From positions 1 to 64,000 of the IMG/VR virus record IMGVR_UViG_3300037553_000311: a stretch of DNA of 64,000 nucleotides; one strand, 5' to 3'. Source of the DNA: a virus. The notes beneath the pieces were generated by a model, which did not search any database, had not been told where the DNA came from, and saw only the letters and a program-made list of their open reading frames with translations. A program made the translations under genes and the position numbers. Shown here piece after piece: positions 4,890 to 64,000 of this stretch; the stretch's first letter is position 1; each line of letters starts with the position of its first letter.

Positions 4890-5233
4890 ATCTGATGACA
4901 TATTAGGCATTATTTGATATGTCATCTAATCGCTAGATCTGATGACATATTAGGCATAATTTGATATGTCATCTAATTGAGCTAATGTACTACATTTGAT
5001 ACATGATTCTTACACACTCTGAGCATGAGCGAACATCTTTACCTACTATCAAGAGTGCTATCGGTAGCTTACTATTTCAGGAGGAGTGTGATCTTCCGAC
5101 ATCTCAGATATATATCATCATAGTAGAAGGTATCAGCTACTACTTGATACCTACCACTGATCTTCGATTAGTAGTAAGTACATCAGATACTATTTGATAT
5201 GCTACCTGATCTAGTGAATATATAACGTATAGG

Positions 5234-5287
5234 ATAATCTATACACATGCTAAAAGTCAGATATCTGACATGATACCTTAGGAGGGT
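5234..5287 (+). promoter_or_regulatory. Conserved leader/RBS block ataatctatac...aaaagtcagatatctgacatgataccttAGGAGGgta. Copies before 5288, 8522, 22407, 39203, 57147, 58585, 63555; 3' part before 42900
   Basis: Near-identical block with a gtcagatatctgac palindrome and a strong Shine-Dalgarno directly before start codons. Confidence 0.85.
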
Positions 5288-6547
5288 ATGAATATGAAAG
5301 TGAATACTGAAGTAATGAATATCGATGGTAACGATGGGTGCGATTTTGATAAAGCAGCTATAGACTCTAATGATAATGAGCATTTTGATAAAGTAGTTAC
5401 TGACGCTAGTGGTAATACCATATGTGTTGGTACTGTCAGATCAGAAATGACCGATAGTCGTGTGGGTATATCATTAGTGAAGTTTGACACTAACCTTAAT
5501 GTACTAGTTAGAAAGGTATATAATGGTAGTGGTGGTGATAGATTCAGACAAGTAATTACTGATTCCGATAATAATATCATCTGTGTTGGATGGAATCATT
5601 CCGAAGGAGCTAGTAATTGGGATGCACTAGTAGTAAAGTTTGACCCTAACCTTAACATATTAGCTAGGACAGTATATAGTGGGACTGATTTGAGTGAGTT
5701 CCGTGGAGTAACAATTGATGATAATGATAACATCATCTGTATTGGTCATATTGCTTCAGAAGGAGCTGGTGGTTGGGATGCGTTAGTGGTGAAGTTTAAT
5801 AGTGATCTCAATGTGCTAGCTAATAAGATCTATAGTGAGACATATTGGGATGAGTTTTATGCAGTAGCTATTGACTCTAGTGGTAATGTCATCTGCACTG
5901 GTCAGACTCAATCAGGAAGAGCTGGTAGTTGGGATGCTCTAGTAGTCAAGTATGATAGTAATCTCAATGTATTAGCTAAGAAGATGTATGGTGGTATTAA
6001 TTTGGATGAGTTCAGTGCAGTAGCTGCTGACTCTAATGGTAATGACATCTGCACTGGTCAGACTCAATCAGGAAGAGCTGGTAGTTGGGATGCTCTAGTA
6101 GTCAAGTATGATAGTAATCTTAGCATATTAGCTAAGAAGATATATGATGGGGCTGGTAGTGATATATTTCATGGGGTAGTTACAGACTCTAATGATAATA
6201 TTATCTGTGTTGGACGTATCTCAGAAGGATCTGGTAATCGTATCGCACTGATAATGAAATTTGACACTAACCTCAATGTACTGACTAGGTATATCTATAA
6301 TGATACTGATAGCGATTGGTTCTATGGAGTTACCACTGATGATGATGACAATATCATCAGTGTTGGATGGACAAATTCAGGTAGTACGTCAGGAGCTGGT
6401 AATTGGGATGTATTAGTGGACAAGTTTGATAATAACCTTAATATACTAGCTAGTAAAGTATATTGTGTGACTGATGATGATGATGACTTTCACACAGTAG
6501 CTACTGACTCTAGTGGTAATATCATAGGCGTTGGATGTACTATCTAA
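5288..6547 (+). CDS. Beta-propeller repeat protein (about 8 blades of ~51 aa)
   Basis: Repeated F.gV.tDsngNiiCvG.t.seg.g..DalvvKfD.nLn.l..k.y motif; conserved promoter and leader upstream. Confidence 0.85.
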   Translation: MNMKVNTEVMNIDGNDGCDFDKAAIDSNDNEHFDKVVTDASGNTICVGTVRSEMTDSRVGISLVKFDTNLNVLVRKVYNGSGGDRFRQVITDSDNNIICVGWNHSEGASNWDALVVKFDPNLNILARTVYSGTDLSEFRGVTIDDNDNIICIGHIASEGAGGWDALVVKFNSDLNVLANKIYSETYWDEFYAVAIDSSGNVICTGQTQSGRAGSWDALVVKYDSNLNVLAKKMYGGINLDEFSAVAADSNGNDICTGQTQSGRAGSWDALVVKYDSNLSILAKKIYDGAGSDIFHGVVTDSNDNIICVGRISEGSGNRIALIMKFDTNLNVLTRYIYNDTDSDWFYGVTTDDDDNIISVGWTNSGSTSGAGNWDVLVDKFDNNLNILASKVYCVTDDDDDFHTVATDSSGNIIGVGCTI

Positions 6548-6610
6548 GATACCGGTACTGATACTCCACTAGTAGTGAAGTTATATGGTAGTAGTGATAC
6601 ATAATCTTAA

Positions 6611-6660
6611 TAAACTCATAGCATACCTATTACGGTATGCTATGAGTTTATTATTTTTTA
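6611..6660. terminator. Palindromic terminator family catagcatacc-N5-7-ggtatgctatg. Copies near 9363, 12766, 38554, 40357, 53407, 56850, 58285, 59316; variants near 458 and 61107
   Basis: Near-perfect inverted repeats right after stop codons, often followed by T-tracts or lying between convergent genes. Confidence 0.8.
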
Positions 6661-6767
6661 TACACTCTCAACATGAGTAATCAGTATCTACTCATATCAC
6701 ATCGGTACACTCTGAGGAGTAGGTAAAGATATTTGCTACTGCTGAGAGTGCATACATGATTTCCTAT

Positions 6768-7352: not shown

Positions 7353-7498
7353 CTCACCTTTTCATTTATTTATCAATCTTATTACGTCATCTACATCGGT
7401 AAACAAATATAATACTATAGTGGAGTATCAAGTATTATCCGATACTCCACTGATCTTCGATAATCTATCAGTCACCTATATTAAAATGGAGCCTACAT

Positions 7499-8302: not shown

Positions 8303-8521
8303 CATATGTGATCTCACGCTATCTTAGGTATATATTAACATAGTAGTAAGCATATCAGATACTACTTGATACACTTACTGATCTAGCGATTAGTAAGCAT
8401 ATCAGATACTACTTGATATACTTACTGATCTAGCGATTAGTAAGCATATCAGATACTACTTGATATGCTACCTGATCTTAAAGTCAGATATATCTGACAT
8501 GATACCTTAGGAGGGTAAGTT

Positions 8522-8656
8522 ATGAAAGTAGATAAAGACAGCCTAGTATCGATAATACTATCGATACTAGTCTTGGGAGCATTGATGCTCCCAAGTGGGA
8601 ACGTAATAGATGAATTTATGACACTAGCAGACATAGCTAATGTCATCTATAGATAG
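8522..8656 (+). CDS. 44-aa membrane peptide (MKVDKDSLVSIILSILVLGALMLP...), not in the ORF track
   Basis: Directly behind promoter, three hairpins and the conserved leader/RBS; hairpin terminator at 8662-8700. Confidence 0.65.
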   Translation: MKVDKDSLVSIILSILVLGALMLPSGNVIDEFMTLADIANVIYR

Positions 8657-19185: not shown

Positions 19186-20022
19186 ATGAAACCAGATACT
19201 GATATATATTTCACAGTCAGTACTTGCATCGTCGATGATAATCGAGAACTAGGCAAGGGAGTAAGAGATAAAGATGGGTACTTTACTGATGTACCTGTAG
19301 CAGTACTAGGTACAACTACTCGTAATAAGACTAGCTATGATACTAAGTCAGTAATCGATAATATCAAAGGACCTGATTCCACATTCCATATCAGATTGAC
19401 TGAAGGTACTCTATATGGTGAGCATGGACATCCATTTGTAGATCTCAATACTCGCATGGGTATGCAACGTCTTATGTCATTAGAAGCATCTAAAGAATCT
19501 CACCATATCAGATCAGTAAAAGTAAAGCGAGTAGATGATCTCGGTATAGATCTAGTACTCATAGATACCAAAGGATCAGGTCCATATGGTAAATATCATG
19601 ATGAAGCTATGCTAGATCCTTCTAGAAATATAGCCTATTCACTTAGAGGTTTGTCTAAAGGTAAATTAGATAAACGTACTGGCGTCATGAATAAAGAATT
19701 AGTCTCATTAGTTACATTTGACTCTAATGTACCATCTGGTGGATTCAAAGAAGCATCTAAACGATATATGTCATCTACTGAAAACTTATCATACTACTCA
19801 GAAGATGTAGTGGATCAGATCATCATACCAGATGATTATGGTATCATAAGAGAAGTAGCATTAGAAACATTCACTGATACTGAACTAAATGATATACTAA
19901 AGAGTACTAAGATAGTGATAGGTAAAACTATAGAGTACTATATAGATAAGAATAACCAAGTACTAGTGGATCAAGGAACTAGTAAAGGTATATTCCATAC
20001 ACTATTCAACAGAGGTAAATGA
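19186..20022 (+). CDS. Prohead (head maturation) protease, phiKZ gp175-like
   Basis: LYGEHGHP (His), YSLRG (Ser), LVTFD motifs; C-terminal S/A-x-E autocleavage-type sites. Confidence 0.82.
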   Translation: MKPDTDIYFTVSTCIVDDNRELGKGVRDKDGYFTDVPVAVLGTTTRNKTSYDTKSVIDNIKGPDSTFHIRLTEGTLYGEHGHPFVDLNTRMGMQRLMSLEASKESHHIRSVKVKRVDDLGIDLVLIDTKGSGPYGKYHDEAMLDPSRNIAYSLRGLSKGKLDKRTGVMNKELVSLVTFDSNVPSGGFKEASKRYMSSTENLSYYSEDVVDQIIIPDDYGIIREVALETFTDTELNDILKSTKIVIGKTIEYYIDKNNQVLVDQGTSKGIFHTLFNRGK

Positions 20023-20026
20023 TACC

Positions 20027-20650
20027 ATGGGTATATTATCAAATCTAAATATAAAACGTATGCAGGATGATCCATCTAGCAGTGACGTCAATTTTGTATC
20101 AGATCATGGTTACTGTTACAGGATCGTACCTAATACTAAATCAGTCTATGTATATTTCAATTGTGGATTTAGCGATATCAGTACATCACTCAAGTTGATA
20201 GGTATGATAAATTCATTATCTGAAGAACATACTCTACATTTCAGTATCAATAGTCCAGGTGGTGAACTCAATTACATATATGCTCTACTATCAGCTATTA
20301 AACGTACAAAAGCTCTAGTGATCATGTGTAATACAGGATTTGCTGCATCATGTGGATCATTACTATTATCATCTGGAGATCAGATATACATAGCTCCACA
20401 AGCTATCACTATGTTTCATGGTCCAACTAGCTTCAATTATGGTAAATCTATCTACAGTAAAACCTCTAATGATATACTATTAGATACTGTCAAAGTACAT
20501 CTTAAGGATATAGTAGCTAAAGGTATATTGTTAGAAGAAGAGTATGAAGGTATATTTACCAGAGATGATGAGTACTTTATTCCTAGTGACGTTATGATCA
20601 CTAGGCTCAAGAATAATAATCTCTGGTATGAGAAAGGGGGAGTACTATAA
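20027..20650 (+). CDS. ClpP-like serine protease
   Basis: INSPGG, AASCGS (catalytic Ser), MFHGP (catalytic His). Confidence 0.8.
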   Translation: MGILSNLNIKRMQDDPSSSDVNFVSDHGYCYRIVPNTKSVYVYFNCGFSDISTSLKLIGMINSLSEEHTLHFSINSPGGELNYIYALLSAIKRTKALVIMCNTGFAASCGSLLLSSGDQIYIAPQAITMFHGPTSFNYGKSIYSKTSNDILLDTVKVHLKDIVAKGILLEEEYEGIFTRDDEYFIPSDVMITRLKNNNLWYEKGGVL

Positions 20651-22031: not shown

Positions 22032-22406
22032 TCACTAGATCAGTGGGAGGTATCAAGTATTATCCGATACCTTCTACTAATTGTATCAGATCAATCACCT
22101 ACTCGTATGGGTAGGTGATTGATCTTCATCTCATGCACTCTGAGCATGAGCGATATGTATCTGCTACTGTAGAGAGTAGATTACTATTTTAGAAGAGTGT
22201 GATCTCGCGACATCTCAAGTATATATCAGTATAGTAGGTATCATATCAGATAATACTTGATATGCTACCTGATCTAGTGATTAGATAAGCATATCAGATA
22301 CTACTTGATATGCTACCTGATCTAGTGATTATATAGCATATAGAATAATCTATACGTACACAAAAAAGTCAGATATATATGACATGATACCTTAGGAGGG
22401 TAAGTT

Positions 22407-22538
22407 ATGAGAGATAAAATTAAAGTAACGAATGAAGATATCATCATTATTGCTGGTTGGACGTATGTTATATGTCCAGTAATAATATTCACGATCATCT
22501 CAGTTATCGCTACAGTTGTAGCGAATAACATCATCTAA
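22407..22538 (+). CDS. 43-aa membrane peptide (MRDKIKVTNEDIIIIAGWTYV...), not in the ORF track
   Basis: Behind promoter, hairpins and conserved leader/RBS; terminator at 22548-22600. Confidence 0.65.
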   Translation: MRDKIKVTNEDIIIIAGWTYVICPVIIFTIISVIATVVANNII

Positions 22539-22624
22539 CTACAAATTATCCTCACCTACACATATCACATGTGTAGGTGAGGATGATATCTTTATTTTTT
22601 ACACTTTAGCATCTACTCATATAT

Positions 22625-25117
22625 TCACCCATACGTGATCTTCACATTATCATTATACCCAGCAGGTACTTCGATACTATCTTTAGTGAGTAATATAGTA
22701 TCACCACTAAAGCCATCTATGAGTACTTGATCATGAGCTATTAGAAATAACTGACTCACTATCTTATTCGTTACTAGCTTATTGATAAGATCAGCTAATA
22801 GATTCTTATGTACAGTATCTAAGTTTCTATCTATCTCATCTACATATACTGGGTAATTATTAAGATCTAACTCGATGATCATAGCTAAGTTAAATGCTAA
22901 TGTAATGATACCTATCTGACCTTGAGAACATTCACTTATATCTCGTATCTTGATACCTTCTATACTAAGAGGGAATACAAAGTTTAATGTATCTACTGGA
23001 TCTATCACCATATGATACGATGTCATCTCACCTATGAAGTAGTTAGTAGTAGTGATGATACTATTAACAAACTCTTTAGTGTAATTGATAGGTAGTTCAG
23101 ATAATGACTCCTCAACTAATTTACTATTAGTATGTAGTGTCTTATATTCATCTATTACAGTATTCACTTCCTTATCTAATCTGATAGCTATAGACTCTTG
23201 TTCTTTACAGATATCAGTGATATCTATAAGCTCTTTCCTTATGTCATTTAGCATCTTATCTAGTATAGTATTCACTCTATTTAAGTAATCGATACTAGCA
23301 CTTACAGATGTATCCTTTTCCATAATCACTATGTTATTTGATAACTCGATAAGCTCACACTTACTAGAGTGAAACTTAGTTAGTAATCTCAGATCATTTA
23401 CATGATTATCACGCTCTAAAGTCTTAGTAATATGTACATTACGTAACTCATCTAATTGGATCTTGTACTTATCTAACTCAGATGTAAGTACTTTAGATGA
23501 GAACTTGATGTTGTTATTAACAGTAGCTTTATCTTTCTCTAAGATATCGATACGCTTGAGTAAGCTCTGATAAGATATATATGATTCACTCTCACGTATG
23601 TAGTTATTGATGATAGTAGATATACCGTTAGGGTAATTTTGCACTATGTTAGGAAGATCACTCATATCTATATATCTGGAGATGGGACCTGATAGTGAGT
23701 TATATATCTCATCTAGGTGTTTCCATACTAGAGTCTGAATTTCTAATTCTTTAGCAAGATTCATACAAGTGGATTCTAGCTTATCTATTCGCTTAGATAA
23801 ACTAATCCCTATCTTGACTAACTTAGCAAGTTCATTCTTTTTAGCTGTGACATGTGAGTTATACTTGATATATAACTCACATGATCCTTTATCACATATG
23901 CTGGCAGTATCGTATTCATTTATCAACTTATTAGCATCTCTCTTACGTTTACTATTAGTACTAGCTTCAATTTTAGCACTACTTAATAGGTTACTATGTT
24001 CACGTAATGATTCTTTTAGTAGTTGATATTCATGTTTACTTAAGATCTTATCATAGGTTACATATGATAAGTTAGTCAGCCAGTAGTTTAGCTTATTATT
24101 AGTCTCTCTAGCGTTATCGATATCATCTATACTGAGAGGTATAAAGTCAGTCTTAAATTCATATGTGTTAGCGTGTACTACTAGATCAGCTAATTCTTCT
24201 TCAGATGAGGTATTAGACTTAGAGATGCTTTTCAGTTTAGCTTCGTAATCGTTTATATTAGTGACTACAGTAGCTAGAGATTTAGTACATTCTAGTATCT
24301 CATTATCTAGCAATTGGATATGTACTGGTAGTGTAGTCAACTTAGTTTCACTACTAGCTCTATCGATATGTGTATATGATAATATGTCATTATAGTTGTC
24401 CCGTAGGGTAGTACGTAAGTCGTCTATATCGATGATTTCACTATCATCACTGACGGTATCTAAGCCCTCCAGTAACCCATTTACCTTAGTTATCCATATG
24501 AGTAATAGTTTCTCCTGATCTTCATACTTCTTCTTAGTATCATTTAGCTTTAGTAACTTATCAGTATCTAGCTGTTGTGATGATAATTGAGCTTGACGTT
24601 GATATAATCTATCTAAGTTATTACTAGCTGAAGTAGTAGCCTTCCTTACAATTTTATGTCTATCTATGAATAAGCTAATATCAATAGGGTTCATATCTAA
24701 GAGTACTGATTTTCTCTGACTAGGTCTCATATTACATATATCTAATGAGCACTTGAGTATAGTCTGTTTAGTGGTATCTAGTTTTAGATACTTATATATG
24801 AGTTCTCTCTGTACTCCATTAGTACCATTCTTATTTAGATTAGTACCATTCTGTATAAATAGATGACCCATCTCTCTGCTATATCTGAGTTCATATATGT
24901 CATTCTCATATTCTAATGTAAGCTCTTTATACCCAGTCTTAGTGAATAAGCTCTTATTATTATCATAAGGATATAGTTCATTGAGTACACTAGATTTAGC
25001 ATACCCATTCCTACCAGTAATGATAGTGATGGGTGAATCAAATTCAGCTTCAAAGTGTTTAATGTTAGCTACTTGAAATCTAATGAAGTTATGCAATACG
25101 ATCTTTAGTATCTTCAT
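22625..25117 (-). CDS. sbcC: SbcC/Rad50-like SMC ATPase
   Basis: GRNGYAKS Walker A, long coiled coil with central Cys pair, CSQGQ signature, VYVDEID Walker B, IAHD H-loop. Confidence 0.85.
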   Translation of the reverse strand: MKILKIVLHNFIRFQVANIKHFEAEFDSPITIITGRNGYAKSSVLNELYPYDNNKSLFTKTGYKELTLEYENDIYELRYSREMGHLFIQNGTNLNKNGTNGVQRELIYKYLKLDTTKQTILKCSLDICNMRPSQRKSVLLDMNPIDISLFIDRHKIVRKATTSASNNLDRLYQRQAQLSSQQLDTDKLLKLNDTKKKYEDQEKLLLIWITKVNGLLEGLDTVSDDSEIIDIDDLRTTLRDNYNDILSYTHIDRASSETKLTTLPVHIQLLDNEILECTKSLATVVTNINDYEAKLKSISKSNTSSEEELADLVVHANTYEFKTDFIPLSIDDIDNARETNNKLNYWLTNLSYVTYDKILSKHEYQLLKESLREHSNLLSSAKIEASTNSKRKRDANKLINEYDTASICDKGSCELYIKYNSHVTAKKNELAKLVKIGISLSKRIDKLESTCMNLAKELEIQTLVWKHLDEIYNSLSGPISRYIDMSDLPNIVQNYPNGISTIINNYIRESESYISYQSLLKRIDILEKDKATVNNNIKFSSKVLTSELDKYKIQLDELRNVHITKTLERDNHVNDLRLLTKFHSSKCELIELSNNIVIMEKDTSVSASIDYLNRVNTILDKMLNDIRKELIDITDICKEQESIAIRLDKEVNTVIDEYKTLHTNSKLVEESLSELPINYTKEFVNSIITTTNYFIGEMTSYHMVIDPVDTLNFVFPLSIEGIKIRDISECSQGQIGIITLAFNLAMIIELDLNNYPVYVDEIDRNLDTVHKNLLADLINKLVTNKIVSQLFLIAHDQVLIDGFSGDTILLTKDSIEVPAGYNDNVKITYG

Positions 25118-38529: not shown

Positions 38530-39202
38530 GTAGTACATGTAGTAGATACTAAACTCCATAGCATACCTATCATGGGTATGCTATGGAGGTCTTAGTGTAC
38601 TTGATTGATAGATACAGCTTACGCCTTATACTAGTGATGGTAGTGATACTCGAATATAGCAAATATGCACTTTGAAACTCAAATCGTTATAGAACCGCAT
38701 GTAGTGATTTGAAAATAGGCTAAAAAGAGCTTCCACGTATATCCCTACGTGAAGGTCATATTTGGGCATATTTGGATTTACTACGTACGGTTCTATAGTG
38801 GGTGAAAATGGTGTATTTGAGTTACTTATTATCTTATCTGAAATATCCTGGGATTTTGAGATAGATGATCTATTAGTAGCTTATTATTTCAGATACTATC
38901 TACTATTGAAACTGTGTAATAATATTATGCTAGTATATATAGTAGTAATCTAAATCAGTCACTATTTCAGGTATATATCACTATAGTAGAAGGTATCAGA
39001 TAATACTTGATACCTCCCACTGATCTTTGATTAGTAGAAGATATCAGATAATACTTGATACCTCCCACTGATCTAGCGATTAGTAGAAGGTATCAGATAT
39101 AACCAGATGTACTTACTGATCTTAGATGAGATAACGTATAGATTAATCTATACGTACACTAAAAGTCAGATATCTGACATGATAGCCTTAGGAGGGTAAG
39201 TT

Positions 39203-40339
39203 ATGAAAGTGAGTAATGAAGTAATGAATATCGATGGTAATGATGGATGTGATTTTGATGAGTTCTACGCAGTAGCTACTGACTCTAGTGGTAATACCAT
39301 ATGTGTTGGCGTTATCAAAACAGAAGGAGCTGGTGGTGATGATGCATTAGTAGTCAAGTATGATACTAATCTTAATGTACTAGCTAGGAAAATATATGGT
39401 GGTATTAATTTGGATGAGTTCAGTGGGGTAGTTATAGATTCCAATAACAACATCATATGTGTTGGGAATACTTATAGTGAAGATAGTGGTATTGATGAAG
39501 CACTAGTAGTCAAGTTCGATCCTAACCTTGACATAATTGCTAAGAAAGTATACGGTGGTAGTGGTATTGATAGGTTCTATGAAGTAGTTACTGATGATAA
39601 TGATAATATCATATGTGTTGGACGTACTGTTTCAGAAGGATCTGGTGATTATGATGCACTAGTAGTAAAGTTTGATAATGACCTTAACATACTAGCTAAG
39701 AGGATATATGATGGAGCTGGTAATTACCGATTCTATGAAGTAGCTACTGACTCTAATGGTAATATCATATGTGCTGGACGTACTCAAACAGAAGGAGCTG
39801 ATTCTGATGTTGCTCTAGTAGTCAAGTACGATCCTAACCTTGACATAATTGCTAAGAAAATATATGATGGTAGTGGTGCTGATGCATTTTATACAGTAGC
39901 TACTGACTCTAATGATAATATCATATGTATTGGATGGACTGTCTCAGAAGAAACTGATTCTGATGAAGCACTAGTAGTCAAGTTCGATACTAACCTTAAC
40001 ATATTGACTAAGAAGATATATGATGGTATTGATTGGTTCAATGGAGTAGCTATAGACTCTAATGATAATATCATATGTGTTGGACGTACTGCTTCAGGTA
40101 GTACGTCAGGAACTGGTAACCATGACACATTAGTAGTCAAGTTCGATCCTAACCTTGACATAATTACTAAGAAATTACATAATGATGCAATTATTGATAG
40201 GTTCTATGAAGTAGTTACTGATGATAATGATAATATTATCTGTGTTGGACGTACTGTTTCAGAAGGATCTGGTAGTTTCGATGCATCAGTAGTCAAATTT
40301 GATCCTAATCTTAATATGCTAGTTAATAAGATACAGTAG
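39203..40339 (+). CDS. Beta-propeller repeat protein (about 7 blades)
   Basis: Same blade repeat and the same MKVSNEVMNIDGNDG N-terminus. Confidence 0.85.
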   Translation: MKVSNEVMNIDGNDGCDFDEFYAVATDSSGNTICVGVIKTEGAGGDDALVVKYDTNLNVLARKIYGGINLDEFSGVVIDSNNNIICVGNTYSEDSGIDEALVVKFDPNLDIIAKKVYGGSGIDRFYEVVTDDNDNIICVGRTVSEGSGDYDALVVKFDNDLNILAKRIYDGAGNYRFYEVATDSNGNIICAGRTQTEGADSDVALVVKYDPNLDIIAKKIYDGSGADAFYTVATDSNDNIICIGWTVSEETDSDEALVVKFDTNLNILTKKIYDGIDWFNGVAIDSNDNIICVGRTASGSTSGTGNHDTLVVKFDPNLDIITKKLHNDAIIDRFYEVVTDDNDNIICVGRTVSEGSGSFDASVVKFDPNLNMLVNKIQ

Positions 40340-43360: not shown

Positions 43361-44710
43361 ATGTCGCTACTAACTAGTCTAAATAATAAAGATCTATCTC
43401 TAGGTAGATTTAGCCTTAACACTGGAACTCATTTTGATATAGCTACTGGTAAGTTCATCCCAGGTAAGGTGAAAAATAAATCCACTATGATACTCAATGG
43501 TGGATTAGCTATGACTAACGCTATCACTGGTAGAGAACAAACATTTAAGTCATCTGTAGCTATAGGGTATTTTGTTAGAGCTATCAAGAACTACGAGAAA
43601 TCTATTGGTGTAGTATATGATTCAGAGATATCCATAGCTGGAGTCGAACGAGTTATCCAATTAGGTGGAGCTGATCCGTTACCTAACGATCCGTTGTATG
43701 ATCGCATTGAACTTTTCGATAAGACTCATGCTGACTTAGGTCAAGTATTTAAAGTAGTGCAAGATATAGCACGTAATAAAGAAAAGCATCGTAAAGATCT
43801 CATAGAAGAGACACCATTTATAGATCGTCACGGTAAGTTCTTAAAGGCATGGCGACCTACTTTAGTATTGATTGATAGCTTCTCAGCAGGTGAATTCACT
43901 AAGCAAGCTGAAGTATTTGAACAATATACAGTAGGTGATGCTAAAACTAATACAGTATATATGGGTGACGGTAATGCTAAAACTCAGTTCATGAGTCAGC
44001 TACCAGCATTAGCAGCTAAAGGTATCTACTTTATATTGACAGCCCATATAGGTGATAAGATCAAGATGGACCCATATGCTGCTAGTAATAAAGACTTACC
44101 ACATATGAGAGGATCAGATCATATCAAGCGAGTAGGTACACAATTCACATTCCAGTCTAATAATCTACTAGAGACTAGAAAGGTAGGTATACTCCAAGAT
44201 ACTAATAAGAAATGTCAATACCCTCACGATTCAGGTTCACCTGTTGAGCTACAAGAGATAATTTCTATAATATGTCGTTGTAAGAATAATGTATCTGGCT
44301 CTATCGTACATCATATCAGTTCTCAGTATTATGGGATACAGGAGTACTTGGAATACTTTAATCTCATCAAGAATAGTAAGACGTCATTAATGTCAGGTAC
44401 TCTCACGTACAAGTTAGGATTTGGTGATTGGGAATTTAACCGTAAGAATATTAGACAGCTCATTAAAGATGATTATGAGTTTCGTAGGACATTAGAGATA
44501 CTAGGACAGTTTTTATATATACGTAATAACTGGAACTTACCTGAAGTATCATCGATTGGATATGTTGAGTTCTGTAAGAAGCTTACAGAGGCTAATAGTA
44601 AATCATCTGATATAATTAACAGTACTGGAATCTGGTCATTTAATGCAGATAAACAAGACCGTAGTTATATGTCTATATTAGACATAGTAGCTCTGATCAA
44701 TCAAAAATAA
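43361..44710 (+). CDS. uvsX: UvsX/RecA-like recombinase
   Basis: TGREQTFKS Walker A, YDSE, LIDSFS Walker B, CKNN. Confidence 0.78.
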   Translation: MSLLTSLNNKDLSLGRFSLNTGTHFDIATGKFIPGKVKNKSTMILNGGLAMTNAITGREQTFKSSVAIGYFVRAIKNYEKSIGVVYDSEISIAGVERVIQLGGADPLPNDPLYDRIELFDKTHADLGQVFKVVQDIARNKEKHRKDLIEETPFIDRHGKFLKAWRPTLVLIDSFSAGEFTKQAEVFEQYTVGDAKTNTVYMGDGNAKTQFMSQLPALAAKGIYFILTAHIGDKIKMDPYAASNKDLPHMRGSDHIKRVGTQFTFQSNNLLETRKVGILQDTNKKCQYPHDSGSPVELQEIISIICRCKNNVSGSIVHHISSQYYGIQEYLEYFNLIKNSKTSLMSGTLTYKLGFGDWEFNRKNIRQLIKDDYEFRRTLEILGQFLYIRNNWNLPEVSSIGYVEFCKKLTEANSKSSDIINSTGIWSFNADKQDRSYMSILDIVALINQK

Positions 44711-55258: not shown

Positions 55259-56830
55259 ATGCCAGTAATCGAAAGTGTAAAAGATCAAGAAGTAGGTAAT
55301 CCAGTATCTGGTACTATCAATGAGCGCCCAGCAGCTCCAACGATTGGTGACATCATGAGTATTCATGGTATCAGAGGAGGTCAGTCTCAAGAAGCCTCTG
55401 AATATATCGATCGTATCAAGAAAGCTGTACAAGCTTTCACCACTACTGAGAAAGTACAAGTACGACGTCTCGGTAATGATGAAAACATTACCGTGTTTAC
55501 AGTAGGTAAAGATTCAGTGATCCTCAGGACAGATTCTGAAGTAGTATCTAATCTCAATGAACTATTAGTAGAAGCTGATCTTCAGCGTGTCTATAAAGAG
55601 TTCAAAGCGATTTACCCTGAGAATCAGTTAATCAACATCATCGCATGTAATAAGTACATGTACGGGAAAGCTTCCCAGATGACTACTTACATTAAAGAAT
55701 TATTACATACTCGTAACTCTGAGTTCATTAAGAACTTCACAGTGAAATCATTCACTCGTAAGTATAAGCTCGAAATCGATACTGATGTAACTGCCGTGAA
55801 ACAGTATCTTGAGATGAATAGCCCTAATGCTACACGTACTGTAGACTTCGGGTTCACAGCATCAGTAGTAGATAATGAGCAAGATAGTAGTGGTGGATAT
55901 CAGAAGCGTGAACCTATCTTCGCTGTCAGTGGATATGTAGACTTTGTTGAGATCGCTCAAAGTAGCGGATATATCGCTGGTTTCAGCACAGGACCAAGTC
56001 GATTCCAACCGATAATTCACGTGACTGAAATCTGTAGTACTATCGTATCATCTAAGATACTTGCACTCGCTATCCCATTAGCAGCAGAGATCTTTGTCAA
56101 TCGGGAATTGTGGAAGACACCATTCCTCACGCTTGGACGTACTGATATCAATATCGGTAATCTTCTTCTTGATCCAGAGAAGAATACTCCATATAAAGCA
56201 AAGACAGCTACTGATATCGCTCGTACATTTACTAATATCGAACCACCATTATTCACAGTAGATGTAATCAGTGGAGCTGCTGGTCTTCCTGGTCTGAATC
56301 GTTTCACTAACCCAGATCGTCATCACCTTATCTCTCAAGATATTGCTGACTTCTTGGATACAGATGAAAGAGGAATTCTCCCATCAGATGGAAAAGCAGT
56401 ATCCTATAATGTCGATCGTGAGATTGTAGGTATCGTGGAATCAGCTAAAGGTCTCAAAGGTGCTTCGTTATTAGACACTAGAGATATCAGTTACCTATTC
56501 GCTACATCTCTCTTGGGATATAGTGATAAGATACGCCACCTCATGCGTGGTAGTAGTGATCCAATTGCCAAATATGAACTCATCAAAGAGATCATCGGTG
56601 AAGTAATCCCTACAGGTCTCAATACGATCGCATTGATCAATGGTGATTTTATCACTAAGATAGCTGTCATCATCTCATCTAAGATCGACATCGTATTACC
56701 GACTAACAATACTGCTCAGCAGATAGATATCTCCAAATACACTGATCTCACTTACAATGGTGTAAGTACGTTCAGTACATCTAACAATAGTAATATGAAC
56801 TTTCAGCAAGGTAGTTATACCAGCTACTAA
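55259..56830 (+). CDS. chmA: Candidate chimallin (phage nuclear shell protein)
   Basis: Early promoter upstream, AGGAGG RBS, MCP-like codon usage, upstream of nvRNAP beta' as for phiKZ gp54-gp55; VSGYVDF...FQPIIHVT resembles chimallin from recall. Confidence 0.55.
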   Translation: MPVIESVKDQEVGNPVSGTINERPAAPTIGDIMSIHGIRGGQSQEASEYIDRIKKAVQAFTTTEKVQVRRLGNDENITVFTVGKDSVILRTDSEVVSNLNELLVEADLQRVYKEFKAIYPENQLINIIACNKYMYGKASQMTTYIKELLHTRNSEFIKNFTVKSFTRKYKLEIDTDVTAVKQYLEMNSPNATRTVDFGFTASVVDNEQDSSGGYQKREPIFAVSGYVDFVEIAQSSGYIAGFSTGPSRFQPIIHVTEICSTIVSSKILALAIPLAAEIFVNRELWKTPFLTLGRTDINIGNLLLDPEKNTPYKAKTATDIARTFTNIEPPLFTVDVISGAAGLPGLNRFTNPDRHHLISQDIADFLDTDERGILPSDGKAVSYNVDREIVGIVESAKGLKGASLLDTRDISYLFATSLLGYSDKIRHLMRGSSDPIAKYELIKEIIGEVIPTGLNTIALINGDFITKIAVIISSKIDIVLPTNNTAQQIDISKYTDLTYNGVSTFSTSNNSNMNFQQGSYTSY

Positions 56831-57146
56831 TCATCCTAAGTCTATCATCCTCCATAGCATACCTATCTAGGTATGCTATGGAGCATTTAGTGTGTCATGT
56901 AGCTTCTCTTTTTATGCACTCTTAGGAGTAGCAATAAGTATCTACTACTCCTAAGAGTGTAGTTCATCAGTAGCTTACTATTTCAGGAGGAATGTGTCCT
57001 CACTACATCTCAGGTATATATTACCATAGTAGATGTACATCAGATACTACTTGATGTACATCTACTGATCTAGTAATGAGATAACGTATAGAATAATCTA
57101 TACACATGCTAAAAGTCAGATATCTGACATGATACCTTAGGAGGGT

Positions 57147-58262
57147 ATGAATATGAAAGTAAGTAATGAAGTAATTATTACCGATGGATGTGATTTCGAT
57201 AAAGCAGCTATAGACACCGCTGGTAATATCATCTGCATTGGCACTGTCAGATCGGAAGAATCTGATACTAACTTTCCACTAATAGTTAAGTATGATGTCA
57301 ATGGTGATATCATACTTAAGAAGATGTATTATGATATTAATTTAGATAAGATCCGTGGAGTAACCACTGATTCTAATGGAGACATCATCTGCATTGGCAC
57401 TGTCAGATCGGAAGAATCTGATACTAAATATCCATTAATAGTTAAGTTTGATACTAATCTTAATGTACTAGCTAAGATGATATGTGATACTGGTGATGAT
57501 TGGTTCAATAAAGTTACCACAGATGCTAATGACAATATCATCTTAGCTGGATGTGCTCTCTCAGAAGAAATTAGTGGTATTGATGCATTAGTGGTTAAGT
57601 ATGACCCTAATCTCAATATACTAGCTAGAAAAACATATGGCGATGGTGGTGAGGAATTTAACCAAGTAACCACTGATTCTAGTGGTAATGTCATATGTGT
57701 TGGATGGACAAATTCAGAAAGAATTGGTACTAATGCCGATGCATTAGTGGTCAAATTTGACAATGACCTTAACATAATTACTAGTAATACATATGATGAT
57801 ACCGATATTGATTGGTTCTATGGTGTAGCTATAGATTCCAATAACAACATCATATGTGTTGGACATACTAGCTCAGGTAGTACGTCAGGAGCTGATTGTT
57901 ATGATGCATTAGTGGTTAAGTATGACACTAATCTTAACATGCTAGCTGATACGATATATAGTGGTATTGGTAATGATTGGTTCGATGCAGTAATCACTGA
58001 TTCTAGTGGTAATGTCATATGTATTGGATGTACTGATTCAGGTAGTACGTCAGCAGCTGGTAATTATGACATGCTAGTGTCGAAGTATGACGCTGATCTC
58101 AATGTATTAGATAGTAATACATATGGTGATACTAGTAGTGATGAATTATATGCAGTAGCTACTAATCATAACGGTGATATAGTATGTGTTGGAGATACAT
58201 TATCAGATAGTACGTCAGGACCTAGTAATTATGTTATACGAGTAGTAAAGTTCACTAGCTGA
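57147..58262 (+). CDS. Beta-propeller repeat protein (about 7 blades)
   Basis: Blade repeats and shared leader. Confidence 0.85.
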   Translation: MNMKVSNEVIITDGCDFDKAAIDTAGNIICIGTVRSEESDTNFPLIVKYDVNGDIILKKMYYDINLDKIRGVTTDSNGDIICIGTVRSEESDTKYPLIVKFDTNLNVLAKMICDTGDDWFNKVTTDANDNIILAGCALSEEISGIDALVVKYDPNLNILARKTYGDGGEEFNQVTTDSSGNVICVGWTNSERIGTNADALVVKFDNDLNIITSNTYDDTDIDWFYGVAIDSNNNIICVGHTSSGSTSGADCYDALVVKYDTNLNMLADTIYSGIGNDWFDAVITDSSGNVICIGCTDSGSTSAAGNYDMLVSKYDADLNVLDSNTYGDTSSDELYAVATNHNGDIVCVGDTLSDSTSGPSNYVIRVVKFTS

Positions 58263-58584
58263 GATCATACATGATCTAAACATTCCCATAGCATACCGAT
58301 ATCAGGTATGCTATGGGTTTATTATTTTTTATGCACTCTGAACATGAGTAGATATCTTTACTTACTCTCAAGAGTGAATCCATCTAATATACTACTATTT
58401 CAAGTATATATCATTATAGTAGAAGGTATCAGCTACTACTTGATACCTACCACTGATCTTCGATTAGTAGTAAGTATCAGATACTACTTTGATGTACATC
58501 TACTAATCTAGCGAATATATAGCGTATAGAATAATCTATACGTACACTAAACGTCAGATATATGACACGATACCTTAGGAGGGT

Positions 58585-59289
58585 ATGAATATGGAAGTAA
58601 GTAATGAAGTAATGAATATATATGGTAATGATGGAGATCAATTCGATAAAGCAGCTATAGACACCGCTGGTAATATCATCTGCATTGGACATGTTAAATC
58701 AGAAGGATCTGATACTAAATATCCATTAGTAGTTAAGTATGATACTAATCTTAATGTACTATTTAAGAAGATGTATTATGATATTAATTTGGATGAGTTC
58801 CGTGGAGTAACTACGGATTCTAGTGGTAATATCATCTGCATTGGATGGACTGTCTCAGAAGAAACTGATTCTGATGTTGCAGTGGTAGTCAAGTTCGATA
58901 CTAATCTTAACATAATCGCTAAGAGAATATATGGTGATAGTGGTGGTGATTGGTTCAATGGAGTAGCTACTGACTCTAGTGGTAATGTCATCTGTGTTGG
59001 ACATACTACCCCAGGTAGTACGTCAGGAGCTGGTAGTTATGATGCATTAGTAGTCAAGTTCGATACTAATCTTAACATAATCGCTAAGAGAATATATAGT
59101 GATAGTGGAGATAGTGGTGATGAATTTGACCAAGTAACTACTGACTCTAATGATAATGTCATCTGTGTTGGATGGACTGATTCAGAAGGAGCTGGTAGTT
59201 CTGAATATCCTAATCGTGTAGATGCATTAATAGTGAAGTATGATAGTGATCTTGATATACATTGGACGTACTCATTCAGAAGTATCTAG
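58585..59289 (+). CDS. Beta-propeller repeat protein, short form (about 4 blades)
   Basis: Blade repeats and shared leader. Confidence 0.82.
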   Translation: MNMEVSNEVMNIYGNDGDQFDKAAIDTAGNIICIGHVKSEGSDTKYPLVVKYDTNLNVLFKKMYYDINLDEFRGVTTDSSGNIICIGWTVSEETDSDVAVVVKFDTNLNIIAKRIYGDSGGDWFNGVATDSSGNVICVGHTTPGSTSGAGSYDALVVKFDTNLNIIAKRIYSDSGDSGDEFDQVTTDSNDNVICVGWTDSEGAGSSEYPNRVDALIVKYDSDLDIHWTYSFRSI

Positions 59290-59584
59290 TAGTGATGATA
59301 CATGATCTAAACATACCCATAGCATACCTGATATCGGTATGCTATGGGAATATTATTTTTATGCACTCTGAACATGAGCAAACATCTTTACCTACTCTCA
59401 AGAGTGAATCCATCTAATATACTACTATCTCAAGTATATATTACTATAGTAGAGATGCATCAGATAATACTTGATACATCTCTACTGATCTTCGATTAGT
59501 AGAAGGTATCAGATAATACTTGATACCTCCTACTAGATCAGATAGCGCATCATATTAATAATCACACATAGGAGATACCACATC

Positions 59585-61090
59585 ATGAAAGTACTACCAA
59601 AGATACTCAACCTAGACGAGCTCTATCATAAGACCCCTAACAAAATCATCTTCAATGAACTACTCATCAGTAAGACACCAGAAGAAATCATAGATATCAT
59701 CTGTGATGTAGGTAGTGATAAATCAGACACATTAGCTAGATGCTCATGTGATGCACTCGTAGGTAATTATTACGAAGGTCTCATCTGCGCTAAGTGTAAT
59801 TCTAAATGCATCAGTTCACTCTACTCTAATATCACAATAGATACATGGCTAGAGATACCTAACTCTATAACTAAAGTACTCAATCCACAAGTATATATCA
59901 TCCTATCTAAATGGATGGGTAATAATGCTAAGAAGGTACCTTACCTAGATACTATCGTCAATATCAAAGCTGAACTAGATGAAGAACTCAAGCCTCATAT
60001 ATTAGGTCAAGGCTTCAATTACTTCTATAGTAACTTCAGTTCTATAATCAATCACTTTGCTAATATCAGAGCTAAGAAACCTTCTACTAAAGCATTACTC
60101 AAGTTCCTAGATAATAATAAGCATAATATGTGGTGCACTAAGCTACCAACTGTCAGTAGTATATTACAACCAGTGACTAAAGCTAATGGATTTGTAAGAT
60201 ATGTATATCCTAATATCGGATACCTCATCAAGTCTATTATCAATCTCAATGGTATACTCTTATCAGAGAAGATGATGAACTTTAGTGTGAATCATATAGA
60301 GAGACATTTCTTCGCTGTATATTCAGCATTCATTGATTATGTCACAACTATAGCTAAAGAACGTCTCCCAGCAAAGAAGCATCTACTACGTAAACATATA
60401 TTTGGTAGTAGACTCCATTGTACAGCTAGGTCAGTAGCTATACCACTCATAGTAAATCATGAAGCAGATGATGTACATATCCCATGGAAGATAGGAGTAT
60501 CTTGCTGGAAGTATCACATCATCTCTATGTTGATCAATAGACATAGTCACACGATAGCTGATGCATTTAACAGAGTATCTAAAGCTATCAATGTATATGA
60601 TCACACGATAGATAAGATAATGCAAACACTCATCAAAGAGTGCCCGTATAAAGGTCTACCAGTACTAATCAATCGGAACCCTTCACTACAGATCGGTTCT
60701 ATACAGTTACTCTTTGTAACTAAAATCAAACCAGGTTTCACTAAACCACCAACACTGATTGAAGAAGACTCAGTGGATAATATGATACTAACAGGTGGAA
60801 AGGTCACGAATAAGGTAAAGTATAAGTTTCCAAAAGAAGTGACATTAGCTGTAGACGATGGTACCATAGCATCATCTCCACTAATCATCGCTGGTTTCAA
60901 TTTAGATTATGATGGGGATGAGTTACATGTATTCCCAATATTCGAGATGAACATGGTACCTAAGTTAAAGGTACTACATCCAGTATCAAAGATATTCAGC
61001 AGTAAGTACATCGGAGTTTCTAATGATGTATCACTTAGTAACCAGCAGTTTATTCTCCTAGACGGGTTTGTAAACGATCCTGATATCTGA
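59585..61090 (+). CDS. Non-virion RNA polymerase beta' N-terminal subunit (phiKZ gp55-like)
   Basis: CSC...CAKC Zn finger, RKHIFGSR..TARSV, NRNPSL, catalytic NLDYDGDE. Confidence 0.88.
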   Translation: MKVLPKILNLDELYHKTPNKIIFNELLISKTPEEIIDIICDVGSDKSDTLARCSCDALVGNYYEGLICAKCNSKCISSLYSNITIDTWLEIPNSITKVLNPQVYIILSKWMGNNAKKVPYLDTIVNIKAELDEELKPHILGQGFNYFYSNFSSIINHFANIRAKKPSTKALLKFLDNNKHNMWCTKLPTVSSILQPVTKANGFVRYVYPNIGYLIKSIINLNGILLSEKMMNFSVNHIERHFFAVYSAFIDYVTTIAKERLPAKKHLLRKHIFGSRLHCTARSVAIPLIVNHEADDVHIPWKIGVSCWKYHIISMLINRHSHTIADAFNRVSKAINVYDHTIDKIMQTLIKECPYKGLPVLINRNPSLQIGSIQLLFVTKIKPGFTKPPTLIEEDSVDNMILTGGKVTNKVKYKFPKEVTLAVDDGTIASSPLIIAGFNLDYDGDELHVFPIFEMNMVPKLKVLHPVSKIFSSKYIGVSNDVSLSNQQFILLDGFVNDPDI

Positions 61091-61264
61091 CCATATTACA
61101 CTCTAATCTCTATAGCACACTATTACAGTGTGCTATAGAGATTATGTAATAACTTTTAATAGCATCTTACCTATATTATGAGAGATACGTCGTCCCACAT
61201 GGAGTTCGTATCAAATACGATAATCAACACGATAAGTTAGTCGTGACATTTAAGGAGAAGTATA

Positions 61265-63070
61265 ATGAATTCATTAACAGCACCTGGTAAGATGCACTGT
61301 TTCAACTGTGGAAAATACAAGCTAGAGAAACACTTCATGGGTAAACCATCTGGACGATTTGCAATCTGTATGAATTGTATTAATGAGTATCTACCTAACG
61401 ACAAAGCTCAAATCACTGACATGAAACCAGTTCATTCTGGAATGTGTACTAGTGATAAATGTAATCGTACTACTGACCTATATACATTCAATGACAAGAT
61501 CATATGCTTACCATGTTTATATAAGTTATTAGTTAGTTGTATGACTGGTGATAATAGTAATTATATTACATGCTCTCGATGTGGAGACAATCAACCGATA
61601 TCTTCTTTTGCTAATAGTGGTAGAACAGTTAACTGGGGTAAGAAGTCAATATGTCGAGGATGTATCAGTGGGAGCGATCACGTTAAGCATAAACTTATAT
61701 CAGATATGACTGATAAAGAAATTACAATCACTGAGAAGAAGTGTGGTCATTGTGGAGTAGTGAAAACTATCAATCACTTCAATCGCCGGAATACTTCAGA
61801 CGATGGTCTTGCCACACATTGTCAGGTATGTACTAAGTATATAAGAGATTGTCGAACAGCTAATTTAGCTAAGCTTCCAGATAAGAATCTACCTATCGAT
61901 GAATATACTGATCTATTAAAACATGTTCACTTCATATGCATCAAATGTAATTCACCCAAACAACTTTCTAATTTCCCTAGCTTTAAAGATACATATAAAC
62001 ATGTATGCAATAGTTGTACAACATCCAGATTATCAACAACAGCTACTAGTACGTATGCTGATTTTCAAATCAAGTACAAAGCGGCTAATACTAATCTAGA
62101 ACACGAAGATGTCCAAAGGTGCTCTAATTGTAAATCGATCAAACCACTATCTCATTTTCATCAGCACCTCAATGGTGTAGGGGGTGGAATTTCAAAGACC
62201 ACGTCATGGTGTAAAGCTTGTAGGGTAATTCAGGCAAAGGATCGATGGGGAGATATAAAAGATCATCATGCGGGTGTATGTAAGAAATATAAAGCTAAAT
62301 TCCCTGAGAGACGTCTAGCTACTAATTTAGTTAGAACCTCTTTGTTAGATGTCGATGGTATCGTATCTAGATTACCAAATAATTATGTCTATCATCATTG
62401 GAACTATTCTACTGAACATCACTTAGATGTTATCCAATTGAGTAAAGCTATTCATATCAACTTACATTTAAGATTAGAATATCATAGAGATCTTGAAACA
62501 GGTACATTCATATTTAGAGATAAGAAAACAGGTGAGCTTTTAGATACTAAAAAGAAGCACGTGTTGGTTATTGATGAGATCAAAAGTTCAAATCCTAAAC
62601 TAATTGAACCTATAATAAGTGATCGTCAAGGATTGAAGACTAAATATATAACTAGTAATAAACCTTATGCTAATTTGATAGTACCTGTCACAGATGAGAC
62701 TGAAAAGGTATTCTGTAGGTCTTGTAAAAACTATCTACTGCCTGCATATTTTAATGAGGTACAGACTAATGGTAATGTTAAATTCATTTATGATGTTTGT
62801 ACTAGATGTAATACTGTATTAGGAGCTAGACACGATGTGAATAATGATCCAGAAATCAGTAGTATAGATGAGTTGAATACTAAGGATACTCGTGATTACA
62901 GTATCGTTTCGAAACATTGCTATGGGTGTTTAGAATTGAAACCGTTAGCATCATTTCCTCGATCAGCTGCTAATATTTTAACTGGTAGGCATCGGTATTG
63001 CGCCGATTGTGCTAAGTATATACGTGGTACTGACAGTAAACAGGATCACATCAATCATGATGAGTTGTAG
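61265..63070 (+). CDS. Multi-zinc-ribbon protein with a putative HNH nuclease domain
   Basis: Many CxxC pairs of the KxCxxC..K....F type; YHHWNY...DVIQL..AIHINLH is HNH-like. Confidence 0.6.
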   Translation: MNSLTAPGKMHCFNCGKYKLEKHFMGKPSGRFAICMNCINEYLPNDKAQITDMKPVHSGMCTSDKCNRTTDLYTFNDKIICLPCLYKLLVSCMTGDNSNYITCSRCGDNQPISSFANSGRTVNWGKKSICRGCISGSDHVKHKLISDMTDKEITITEKKCGHCGVVKTINHFNRRNTSDDGLATHCQVCTKYIRDCRTANLAKLPDKNLPIDEYTDLLKHVHFICIKCNSPKQLSNFPSFKDTYKHVCNSCTTSRLSTTATSTYADFQIKYKAANTNLEHEDVQRCSNCKSIKPLSHFHQHLNGVGGGISKTTSWCKACRVIQAKDRWGDIKDHHAGVCKKYKAKFPERRLATNLVRTSLLDVDGIVSRLPNNYVYHHWNYSTEHHLDVIQLSKAIHINLHLRLEYHRDLETGTFIFRDKKTGELLDTKKKHVLVIDEIKSSNPKLIEPIISDRQGLKTKYITSNKPYANLIVPVTDETEKVFCRSCKNYLLPAYFNEVQTNGNVKFIYDVCTRCNTVLGARHDVNNDPEISSIDELNTKDTRDYSIVSKHCYGCLELKPLASFPRSAANILTGRHRYCADCAKYIRGTDSKQDHINHDEL

Positions 63071-63554
63071 ATCAGAATGTCTAAGTAAGTCAAGCATATA
63101 TCTTATATAGATGAACTCTATACTAAACTCTCATAACGCTCTCTACATCGGGAGCGTTATGAGAGAGCGTGTGATGATGTTTTTATTAGCTGATGATCCA
63201 CTCTAATAATAGAGCTTCTCTTTTTTTACGGATGCACTTTCAGCATGAGATAATATCTTTTACTACTACTCAAAGTGCATATATTTTTAGTATAGAATCA
63301 GATGGTAAATGTAGATATTCATATCGGATCTTTGATATATCCCTAGTTACTATATAAGCTCTATATTTCAGGTATATATTACTATAGTAGAGATGCATCA
63401 GATGATACTTGATGCATCTCTACTGATCTCTGATTAGTAGATGTGCATAAGATACAACCTGATGTACATCTACTGATCTAGTAATGAGATAGCGTATAGA
63501 ATAATCTATACACACGCTAAAAGTCAGATATCTGACATGATACCTTAGGAGGGT

Positions 63555-64000
63555 ATGAATATGAAAGTGAGTAATGAAGTAATGAATATCTATGGTAACG
63601 ATGGAGATCAATTCGATAAAGTAGCGATAGATTCTAGTGGTAATGTCATCTGTGCTGGTACTATCGGATCAGAAGGGACTGGTAGTCATGTGGGTATATT
63701 AATAATCAAGTATGATATTAACCTTAATGTACTAGTTAGAAAGGTATATGGTGGTAGTGGTGGTGATAGGTTCGGACAAGTAACTACGGACTCTAATAAT
63801 AACGTCATCTGTGTTGGATATACACTATCAGGAAGAGCTGGTGATTATGATACACTAGTAGTGAAGTTTGATAGTGATCTTAATCTACTAGCTAGGAAGA
63901 CATATGGTGGTATTATTTTGGATGAGTTCAGTGCAGTAGCTACTGACTCTAATGATAATGTCATCTGTGCTGGGTATACTACTAGTGAAGATAATTGTTA
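63555..64000 (+). CDS. Beta-propeller repeat protein, 5' part (runs off the window)
   Basis: Leader block, then MNMKVSNEVMNIYGNDGDQFDKVAIDSSGNVIC... Confidence 0.85.
   Translation, partial: MNMKVSNEVMNIYGNDGDQFDKVAIDSSGNVICAGTIGSEGTGSHVGILIIKYDINLNVLVRKVYGGSGGDRFGQVTTDSNNNVICVGYTLSGRAGDYDTLVVKFDSDLNLLARKTYGGIILDEFSAVATDSNDNVICAGYTTSEDNC

Follow-up and report, generated by a model that had tools for sequence, protein, structure and literature searches.

An SBBP-type beta-propeller gene family with probable blade exchange and early-promoter cassettes in a phiKZ-like jumbo phage contig

Lineage-specific expansions of repeat proteins occur in large viruses, as in the kelch and ankyrin families of poxviruses and the repeat families of mimivirus. 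Phage phiKZ carries a set of paralogues, gp131-gp135, and the C-terminal part of gp131 is a seven-bladed propeller at the baseplate periphery. The zinc-ribbon expansion of Bacillus phage G is another lineage-specific family expansion in a large virus (PMC7824862). In T4-type phages, promoter-early stem-loop (PeSL) elements form mobile regulatory cassettes (PMC2839356, PMC4122927), and modular tail fibres such as T4 gp37/gp38 join an anchor conserved at the N-terminus to a distal part that binds receptors and recombines (PMC3157838). Here, a family of SBBP-type beta-propeller genes was investigated in a viral DNA of 64,000 nucleotides (the window), the first 64 kb of the 92,684-bp IMG/VR contig IMGVR_UViG_3300037553_000311. 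A preliminary description of the window had proposed that its propeller genes stand on identical expression cassettes and shuffle their blades as a combinatorial diversification system. The account favoured here, with moderate confidence, is a lineage-specific SBBP family with early short members, which would evolve by birth-and-death and ordinary homologous recombination with no dedicated machine. The closest frameworks were the repeat-protein expansions of large viruses and the PeSL cassettes. Like those expansions, the family has many paralogues of one binding fold, apparent turnover by duplication and recombination, and variation on putative binding surfaces; it differs in belonging to a phage, in consisting of SBBP propellers, in its early promoters of the virion RNA polymerase (vRNAP) class and in the apparent exchange of blades with fibre-like genes.

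Analysis of the translations confirmed that genes B-F and gene A of the window form an SBBP-type beta-propeller family. The repeat F..V..D..GN.IC.G.T.S(loop)DALVVKFD.NLN.L..K.YGG...D occurred in tandem in five open reading frames (ORFs) and in an ORF end at 3–368. The propeller genes first described were all found: gene B (5288–6547, 419 aa), gene C (39203–40339, 378 aa), gene D (57147–58262, 371 aa), gene E (58585–59289, 234 aa) and gene F (63555–64000 in the window, ending at 64808 on the contig, 417 aa), together with the 3' end of gene A (3–368), all on the + strand. The reported variation in blade number was also present, with seven full blades and a partial eighth in B, seven in C, six full and a partial seventh in D, only four in E, and six plus two degenerate blades in F, which mixes two blade subtypes (FD.NLN and FSGSDLS). 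The end of gene A was recognized by translation, and the last 121 aa of the predicted protein P0010 are identical to the ORF. Gene A is a long family member with a tail-fibre-like N-terminal domain, six to seven blades and C-terminal DSNLTLA heptad repeats; its full forms are P0013 (654 aa) and P0010.

The contig carried at least 13 members (12 genes and a degenerate member at 67405–68148), with 7–8 members outside the window at contig 65.5–72.5 kb and 82.5 kb, and further predicted members are present on sibling contigs. The blades of about 52 aa numbered 70 on the contig, and a hidden Markov model of the blade gave 75 repeat matches, every one on the + strand. Family coding sequence amounted to 13.7% over the contig as a whole and 7.9% within the window. 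The Pfam SBBP profile (PF06739) matched gene E with 29.5 bits (gathering cut-off 20.5) and P0010 with 39.2 bits; gene C was below the cut-off (16.8 bits), B, D and F were unmatched individually, and all aligned unambiguously with the family. Pfam DPOA2_OB matches on C and E were rejected as spurious, low-complexity-type matches. Among bacteria and archaea, a large protein search revealed proteins with SBBP and delta-60 repeats, many of which have secretion or sorting domains.

Structure modelling with AlphaFold2 (AF2), which had been suggested as a check, showed closed seven-bladed propellers for C and B. The model of C had 28 strands (pLDDT 88.3, pTM 0.89); in that of B, seven blades were closed, while the N-terminus and the partial eighth blade were floppy. 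The top PDB match of the C model in Foldseek was the propeller of CylK [PDB 7RON/7FH6; template modelling (TM) score 0.85], which was also matched by phmmer (E=1e-12). CylK and the phage family share the ~50-aa repeat and the closed seven-bladed propeller; CylK differs in being a bacterial enzyme that performs Friedel-Crafts alkylation and in having an additional domain at its N-terminus. Most cellular SBBP proteins are secreted or lie on the cell surface, whereas the phage proteins are mostly free-standing, present in many copies and without signal peptides; for B-F, the claimed lack of a signal peptide was borne out by direct reading of the translations. The gp131-gp135 set is alike in comprising paralogous propeller proteins of a phiKZ-type phage; no sequence match to these proteins was seen, and they were absent among the Foldseek PDB matches listed. 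In a viral structure library, the nearest entries were giant-virus collagen/propeller proteins and cyanophage structural proteins. A search of the ESM Atlas with the N-terminal domain of the long genes gave nothing above 0.76, and no SBBP propeller family was found described for phages in the literature searched.

Comparison of the blades at the DNA level showed extensive sharing within and between genes. Every exact string quoted in the preliminary description was recovered, namely a 30-mer at 5988 and 39396, a 26-mer at 57318 and 58765, a 44-mer at 57198 and 58645, and a 17-mer in four genes (6378, 40095, 57874, and 59012). The intragenic duplications were likewise present, with 75 nt exact between 5890 and 6046, 45 nt between 39565 and 40192, and 33 nt between 39614 and 40241; the 75-nt match marks B4 and B5 as a recent tandem duplicate. 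Mean DNA identity of blade pairs was 66%, best inter-gene partners shared 70–89%, C3 and C7 shared 86%, and the maximum was 94% (tandem blades K2/K3). Exact tracts of 30–75 nt lay inside blades otherwise 65–85% identical, and an exact tract of 54 nt was common to the last blades of genes E and L (the latter at contig 82.5 kb).

In the maximum-likelihood blade tree, 30 gene-label changes were counted (minimum 10, shuffled mean 43.6), so that blades grouped by subfamily and not by gene; the departure from gene of origin that had been looked for was thus present. A 3SEQ-type exact test of 185,136 triplets gave seven significant triplets after Bonferroni correction, chiefly involving D2 and B4/B5. 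D2 was a significant mosaic, with a middle like D1/E1 and flanks like E2, and third-by-third identity profiles of B4, D2, D5, and E4 displayed the switches directly. The pairwise homoplasy index (PHI) was significant over all sites (p<=0.004) and over third positions (0.014 for all blades, 0.013 for the tandem genes). First blades (B1, F1, D1, and E1) and some last blades (E4/L7 and D7/H7) retained their positions. Since these terminal types are position-bound, blade order is not free, and the freely combinatorial order first proposed did not hold. The repertoire was mostly old, with dS of 0.3–1.0 and a few recent events.

The same phage was represented on 4–6 contigs from several sources, and all strain comparisons were made with proteins predicted from assembled metagenome contigs. 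Core proteins of the sibling contigs differed by one to three substitutions in ~5,300 aligned residues, contig-end effects aside, while family genes varied among them; the population polymorphism foreseen earlier was therefore found at the protein level. P0016/P0128 (three contigs) corresponded to gene B with B4 and B5 merged at the 75-nt exact repeat and thus with one blade fewer. The gene A alleles P0013 and P0010 were exactly one 52-aa blade apart, plus a few residues of the heptad repeats. P0129 (three contigs) equalled gene F except for nine substitutions in 21 residues (173–193). The window version of this patch was that of P0208/P0027, a donor search for the P0129 version found none, and the patch looks like the product of conversion tracts of unequal length in two strains. 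P0126, whose contig measures no more than 1,027 bp, joins the initial 3.5 blades of B to the last blade of E, with ~11 nt common at the junction. The contigs of 78,813 and 67,461 bp had been considered as a second lineage, which was dropped: P0013 (on the 78,813-bp contig) is a full-length gene A allele, so both contigs probably represent adjoining regions of the same genome or of a sibling one.

Long exact tracts also linked short and long genes. Residues 169–245 of F were identical to 279–355 of P0208 (77 aa, the first blade of P0208) and 247–286 of F to 357–396 of P0208 (40 aa); residues 1–42 of A were identical to 531–572 of P0208 (42 aa), and 31 aa of C (197–227) recurred within gene A. 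Loop residues are included in each of the four tracts. Within the contig, exact inter-gene matches were at most 24 aa long, with a median of 9.5. The long proteins P0208 (704 aa) and P0027 (551 aa) were identical in the first 347 aa and then had different blades. This arrangement resembles modular tail fibres; it differs in that the units are propeller blades and that the apparent partners include early-promoter genes without a fibre anchor. By the tree, the triplet tests, PHI and the strain variants, blade recombination is real and probably ongoing. The proposed shuffling by gene conversion or recombination thus stood as far as pieces move within and between genes, and was weakened in that most blades are old.

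Column entropy in the blade alignment peaked at two sites, the B-C loop immediately following C-x-G and the D-A loop immediately preceding the next F, while the strands and the DS.GN and D.NLN turns were nearly fixed. In beta-propellers generally, the B-C and D-A loops lie on one face. Pooled Nei-Gojobori dN/dS was 0.26–0.36 for framework columns and 0.8–1.5 for loop columns with similar dS in both, as expected from the loop-concentrated variation first reported; because these data also served to choose the loop columns, dN/dS is inflated there and is no proof of positive selection. The values fit relaxed or diversifying selection on the loops. The preliminary description had named gene-of-origin trees, unbiased loops and lack of polymorphism as outcomes contrary to it, and none of the three occurred.

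Several irregularities were observed in individual family genes. At 5288–5390 in gene B, a blade begins (FDKAAIDSNDNEH), stops after 13 residues and is followed by the restart of a new blade, as if an unequal or illegitimate exchange had left a scar. The tail of gene F (contig 64650–64808) is degenerate, with a 7-residue tandem duplication (YTPLVVKYYTPLVVKF), a decayed last blade and then a borrowed NHDEL end. Genes G (three blades) and H (seven blades), at contig 65553–67206, are split by a stop and 34 nt carrying a repeated ribosome-binding site (RBS)/start module. Genes G, E, and K have too few blades (three to four) for a closed propeller of their own and may be in decay or may pair up. 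Genes A, I, and J end in DSNLTLA-type heptads after SDIPTGTF.G.V.TNLTL (window 200–368; contig 70200–70364 and 71620–71779), with a DNA period of 42 nt, and strain alleles vary in the heptads.

The contig (GC ~34%) was estimated by CheckV to be 32% complete, which implies a genome near 290 kb. Its terminase was 35–39% identical to the terminases of phiKZ-like phages. A phiKZ-type major capsid protein was encoded at 36340–38529 (PhiKZ_MCP, PF25620, E=3e-30), an S80 prohead protease at 19186–20022 (PF20034, E=7e-24) and a beta-type subunit of a multisubunit RNA polymerase at 59585–61090 (phrog_2987, E=2e-78). The terminase, capsid, protease and RNA polymerase markers showed the source to be a distant, uncultured phiKZ-like jumbo phage (Chimalliviridae and relatives). 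In the interval 19186–20650, a ClpP-like protease gene lies directly 3' of the prohead protease gene. Megablast of 13 kb against GenBank phages gave zero matches, and scans of IMG/VR and JGI metagenomes with gene B, P0133 and the ORF at 55259 revealed no close relatives among the records searched; the lone viral locus recovered held a blade fragment only and lacked the promoter motif. Preceded by an early promoter and almost invariant among strains, the ORF at 55259–56830 (523 aa) was without a match in Pfam, PHROGs and the PDB sequences. Rfam and tRNA scans of the window were empty.

Alignment of the regions upstream of the five short genes showed 82% mean column identity over 268 columns, spanning the RBS and the first ~17 codons, and leader motifs occurred 5–6 times against 0–0.2 expected by chance. 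On the + strand, the cassettes were located at 5102–5287 for gene B (promoter motif, two ~48-nt hairpin units, two short palindromes and RBS), 38965–39202 for gene C (directly 3' of the phiKZ-type major capsid gene), and, by alignment and motif, 57008–57146 for gene D and 63366–63554 for gene F. For gene E, repeat comparison revealed a terminator/hairpin/promoter module with leader (58263–58584). The promoter core TTTCARGTATATATTAC..ATAGTAG had ~24 copies on the contig, exclusively on the + strand; the fuller form is T[CT]TCA[AG]GTATATAT[CT]A..ATAGTAG, which contains TATATTAC. This motif closely resembles the published early-promoter consensus of phiKZ, 201phi2-1, OBP, and N1M2 (PMC7058600, Table 2), and such early promoters are read by the virion RNA polymerase (PMC7598289). 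The assignment of the propeller genes as early genes, made in the preliminary description, agreed with this promoter class.

The promoter motif was also found 5' of thyX (30928) and of the RNA polymerase subunit gene (59585), and the capsid gene lacked it. The promoter was followed by one to three hairpin units of ~48 nt, here and genome-wide; copies at 526, 8322, 26157, 30847, 42735, 54769, and 59428, for example, were each followed by arrays of such units with a conserved loop. The ~85-nt leader, with two short palindromes and the ribosome site, was found at the five propeller genes and also at the hydrophobic 43-aa ORF starting at 22408, and its final 25 nt (CCTTAGGAGGGTATGAATATGAAA, encoding MNMK) were present even at unrelated ORFs with a different leader. 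The consensus fold of the leader had three small hairpins, and the leader is too conserved for covariation, so that RNA structure and protein-binding palindromes are indistinguishable in it. The tandem genes G-K and gene L had other ribosome-site modules and other N-termini.

The N-terminal peptide of the five short propellers, M(NM)KVSNEVMNIDGNDG, is conserved over 15–19 residues and modelled as disordered, with S-x-E in four of the five genes; on the contig it was found only on these propellers and the 43-aa ORF (22408–22539). There, promoter, leader, RBS and similar first codons (M..K.KVTNE) occupy 22213–22539 (+ strand) on an ORF unrelated to the propellers. This ORF (MRDKIKVTNEDIII...) has a single predicted membrane span, and the locus resembles a propeller cassette with the body replaced. 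Judged by its distribution, the cassette is the phage's general early-gene module, and the shared N-terminus would be partly cassette sequence. Of the claim of identical cassettes, the common promoter, leader, RBS and N-terminus therefore held; their being specific to propellers did not, because promoter and hairpins recur genome-wide and the leader is also present at 22408.

Direct repeats were found around two of the short genes. The segment 58263–58493 recurred at 59294–59524 (231 bp, 88%, + strand), and the early promoter belonging to the RNA polymerase subunit gene (59585) lies in this second copy; with copies at both sides, gene E is bracketed. A 271-bp direct repeat, with its first copy at 63051–63318 (+ strand) and 94% identical to contig 64789–65057, brackets the entire gene F cassette. 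It begins inside coding sequence, so the zinc-finger/HNH protein upstream and gene F both end in NHDEL. This 601-aa protein (61265–63070), directly 5' of the gene F cassette, has Lar-like, endonuclease VII/HNH and Stc1 zinc-finger matches. PeSL elements are alike in being composite modules of early promoter and stem-loop/terminator that are repeated genome-wide, flank variable genes and supply homology for gain, loss or swap; the corresponding sign here is the bracketing of E and F by direct repeats, known within the DNA of one contig. They differ in using host sigma-70 promoters, whereas the present modules belong to another phage group with a virion multisubunit RNA polymerase and are longer, with arrays of ~48-nt hairpins.

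Under the favoured account of birth-and-death with ordinary homologous recombination, the short members (B-F) are free-standing propellers of about seven blades behind an early promoter and structured leader. As such promoters are read by the virion RNA polymerase, the short propellers would be made in the cytoplasm in the first minutes of infection. The long members (A, P0208) present the same blades between a tail-fibre-like N-terminal domain and C-terminal heptads. Unequal crossing-over of neighbouring blades may add or remove exactly one blade, short-tract gene conversion may copy parts of blades among paralogues, short and long genes included, and the repeated promoter/terminator modules flanking genes would permit duplication or swap of whole cassettes or gene ends. 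Selection would hold the four strands and two tight turns of each blade, and the B-C and D-A loops would change at about the neutral rate or faster. The variable face presumably binds ligands, and the short proteins may have host molecules as their targets at an early stage of infection. The early promoter and the missing signal peptide favour cytoplasmic early binders as the putative function; a host-defence target is pure conjecture. The shuffling would be performed by recombination enzymes of the phage. UvsX, RuvC and SbcC had been reported in the window; a UvsX-like recombinase (43361–44710, + strand, by sequence match) and an SbcC/SMC-like gene (22625–25117) were found, and RuvC was absent among the ORFs scanned. 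The UvsX-like recombinase could plausibly be the agent of the exchanges.

Several results weigh against this account. For the window genes B-F, PHI at third positions was not significant (p=0.26), and a run test limited to synonymous codons gave no significant pair after multiple testing. The single-blade indels sit at 66–75-nt exact repeats, where assemblers can collapse copies. To these are added the shortness of the P0126 contig carrying the B/E chimera and the choice of the loop columns. Early expression of the short genes is judged from the promoter consensus, and the viral analogues of the fold are mostly virion or fibre proteins, which favours a role in the virion over an intracellular one.

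This last point leads to the best-surviving alternative, which we consider possible but unlikely: the short propellers may be accessory virion adhesins whose N-terminal peptide docks on a fibre or the baseplate, forming a multi-adhesin host-range set in which blade exchange with the long fibre genes alters host recognition. The long members pair the same blades with a tail-fibre-like N-terminus, for which a weak match to phrog_6049 (E=4e-4) was obtained, and tail-fibre genes of Nitratiruptor phages match at 27–32%. The exact tracts common to long and short genes and the chiefly structural or fibre nature of viral proteins of this fold point the same way, as does the N-terminal peptide, which is better conserved than the blades and is modelled as disordered. 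However, conservation of the peptide equals that of the adjacent non-coding leader, so that it may merely be part of a homogenised cassette, and the tag is on no other protein class of the contig save the 43-aa ORF. In addition, each short gene stands behind the early promoter class of thyX and the RNA polymerase subunit gene, whereas the capsid gene beside C has no such promoter.

A further reading takes the early short genes and the long fibre-like genes as one exchange network. In it, the bank of paralogues would serve as an intragenomic donor library for receptor- or host-factor-binding genes by gene conversion, a recombination-based generator of specificity distinct from diversity-generating retroelements (DGRs) and invertible fibre segments; this was regarded as doubtful.

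It is improbable that the genes are old static paralogues, with mosaics arising from framework constraint, codon preference and short alignments, and with strain variants as assembly artefacts. The mean blade identity of only 66% and the dS values agree with such a history, many of the long exact matches lie in the most conserved segment, DALVVKF..L..K.YGG, and the synonymous-codon run test and the position of the indels at collapse-prone repeats would also suit it. The exact tracts of 31–77 aa nevertheless span the variable loops and are 3–8 times longer than inter-gene matches within the contig, and the triplet tests use only sites at which the parents differ. To explain the gene F patch as an artefact, two in-register assembly switches are needed, and each form is on several contigs. 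In two different assemblies, F blade 4 is identical to the first blade of the long gene, and synonymous codon identity was 0.65 against 0.51 expected from codon usage.

A programmed system, in which a bank of blade cassettes is actively recombined in the manner of variable lymphocyte receptors (VLR), vlsE or pilS, was judged highly improbable, and the dedicated VLR- or antigenic-variation-like machinery once envisaged was not borne out: the family is large (13.7% of the contig), varies in its loops with dN/dS of about 1 or above, appears to have more recombination events than point changes among sibling contigs and links short genes with fibre-like genes, but the 92.7-kb contig held no silent donor cassettes, no single expression site or acceptor locus and no reverse transcriptase, no dedicated enzyme or recombination signal was found in it, each gene or operon has its own promoter and/or RBS, an intact frame and framework dN/dS of ~0.3, most blades are old with terminal types fixed in position, and the flanking cassette is generic. 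A DGR was likewise rejected, as the 92.7-kb contig (about a third of the genome) had no RVT_1 match and the gene F patch showed no asparagine-codon pattern.

The early genes of phiKZ-like phages are largely uncharacterised, and a family filling ~14% of the fragment must matter to the phage. It would be a fast-changing set of putative binding proteins whose repeat units are exchanged, gained and lost. Should the short propellers bind host molecules, they form a natural series of binders with one scaffold and different loops, and such a series could be used in screens against components of host defence or the envelope. Blade exchange between early and fibre-like genes, if read-level data bear it out, would open an unusual way to new specificities of host recognition. 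The concept of mobile regulatory cassettes, known from T4-type phages, would also extend to phages that transcribe with a virion RNA polymerase of their own.

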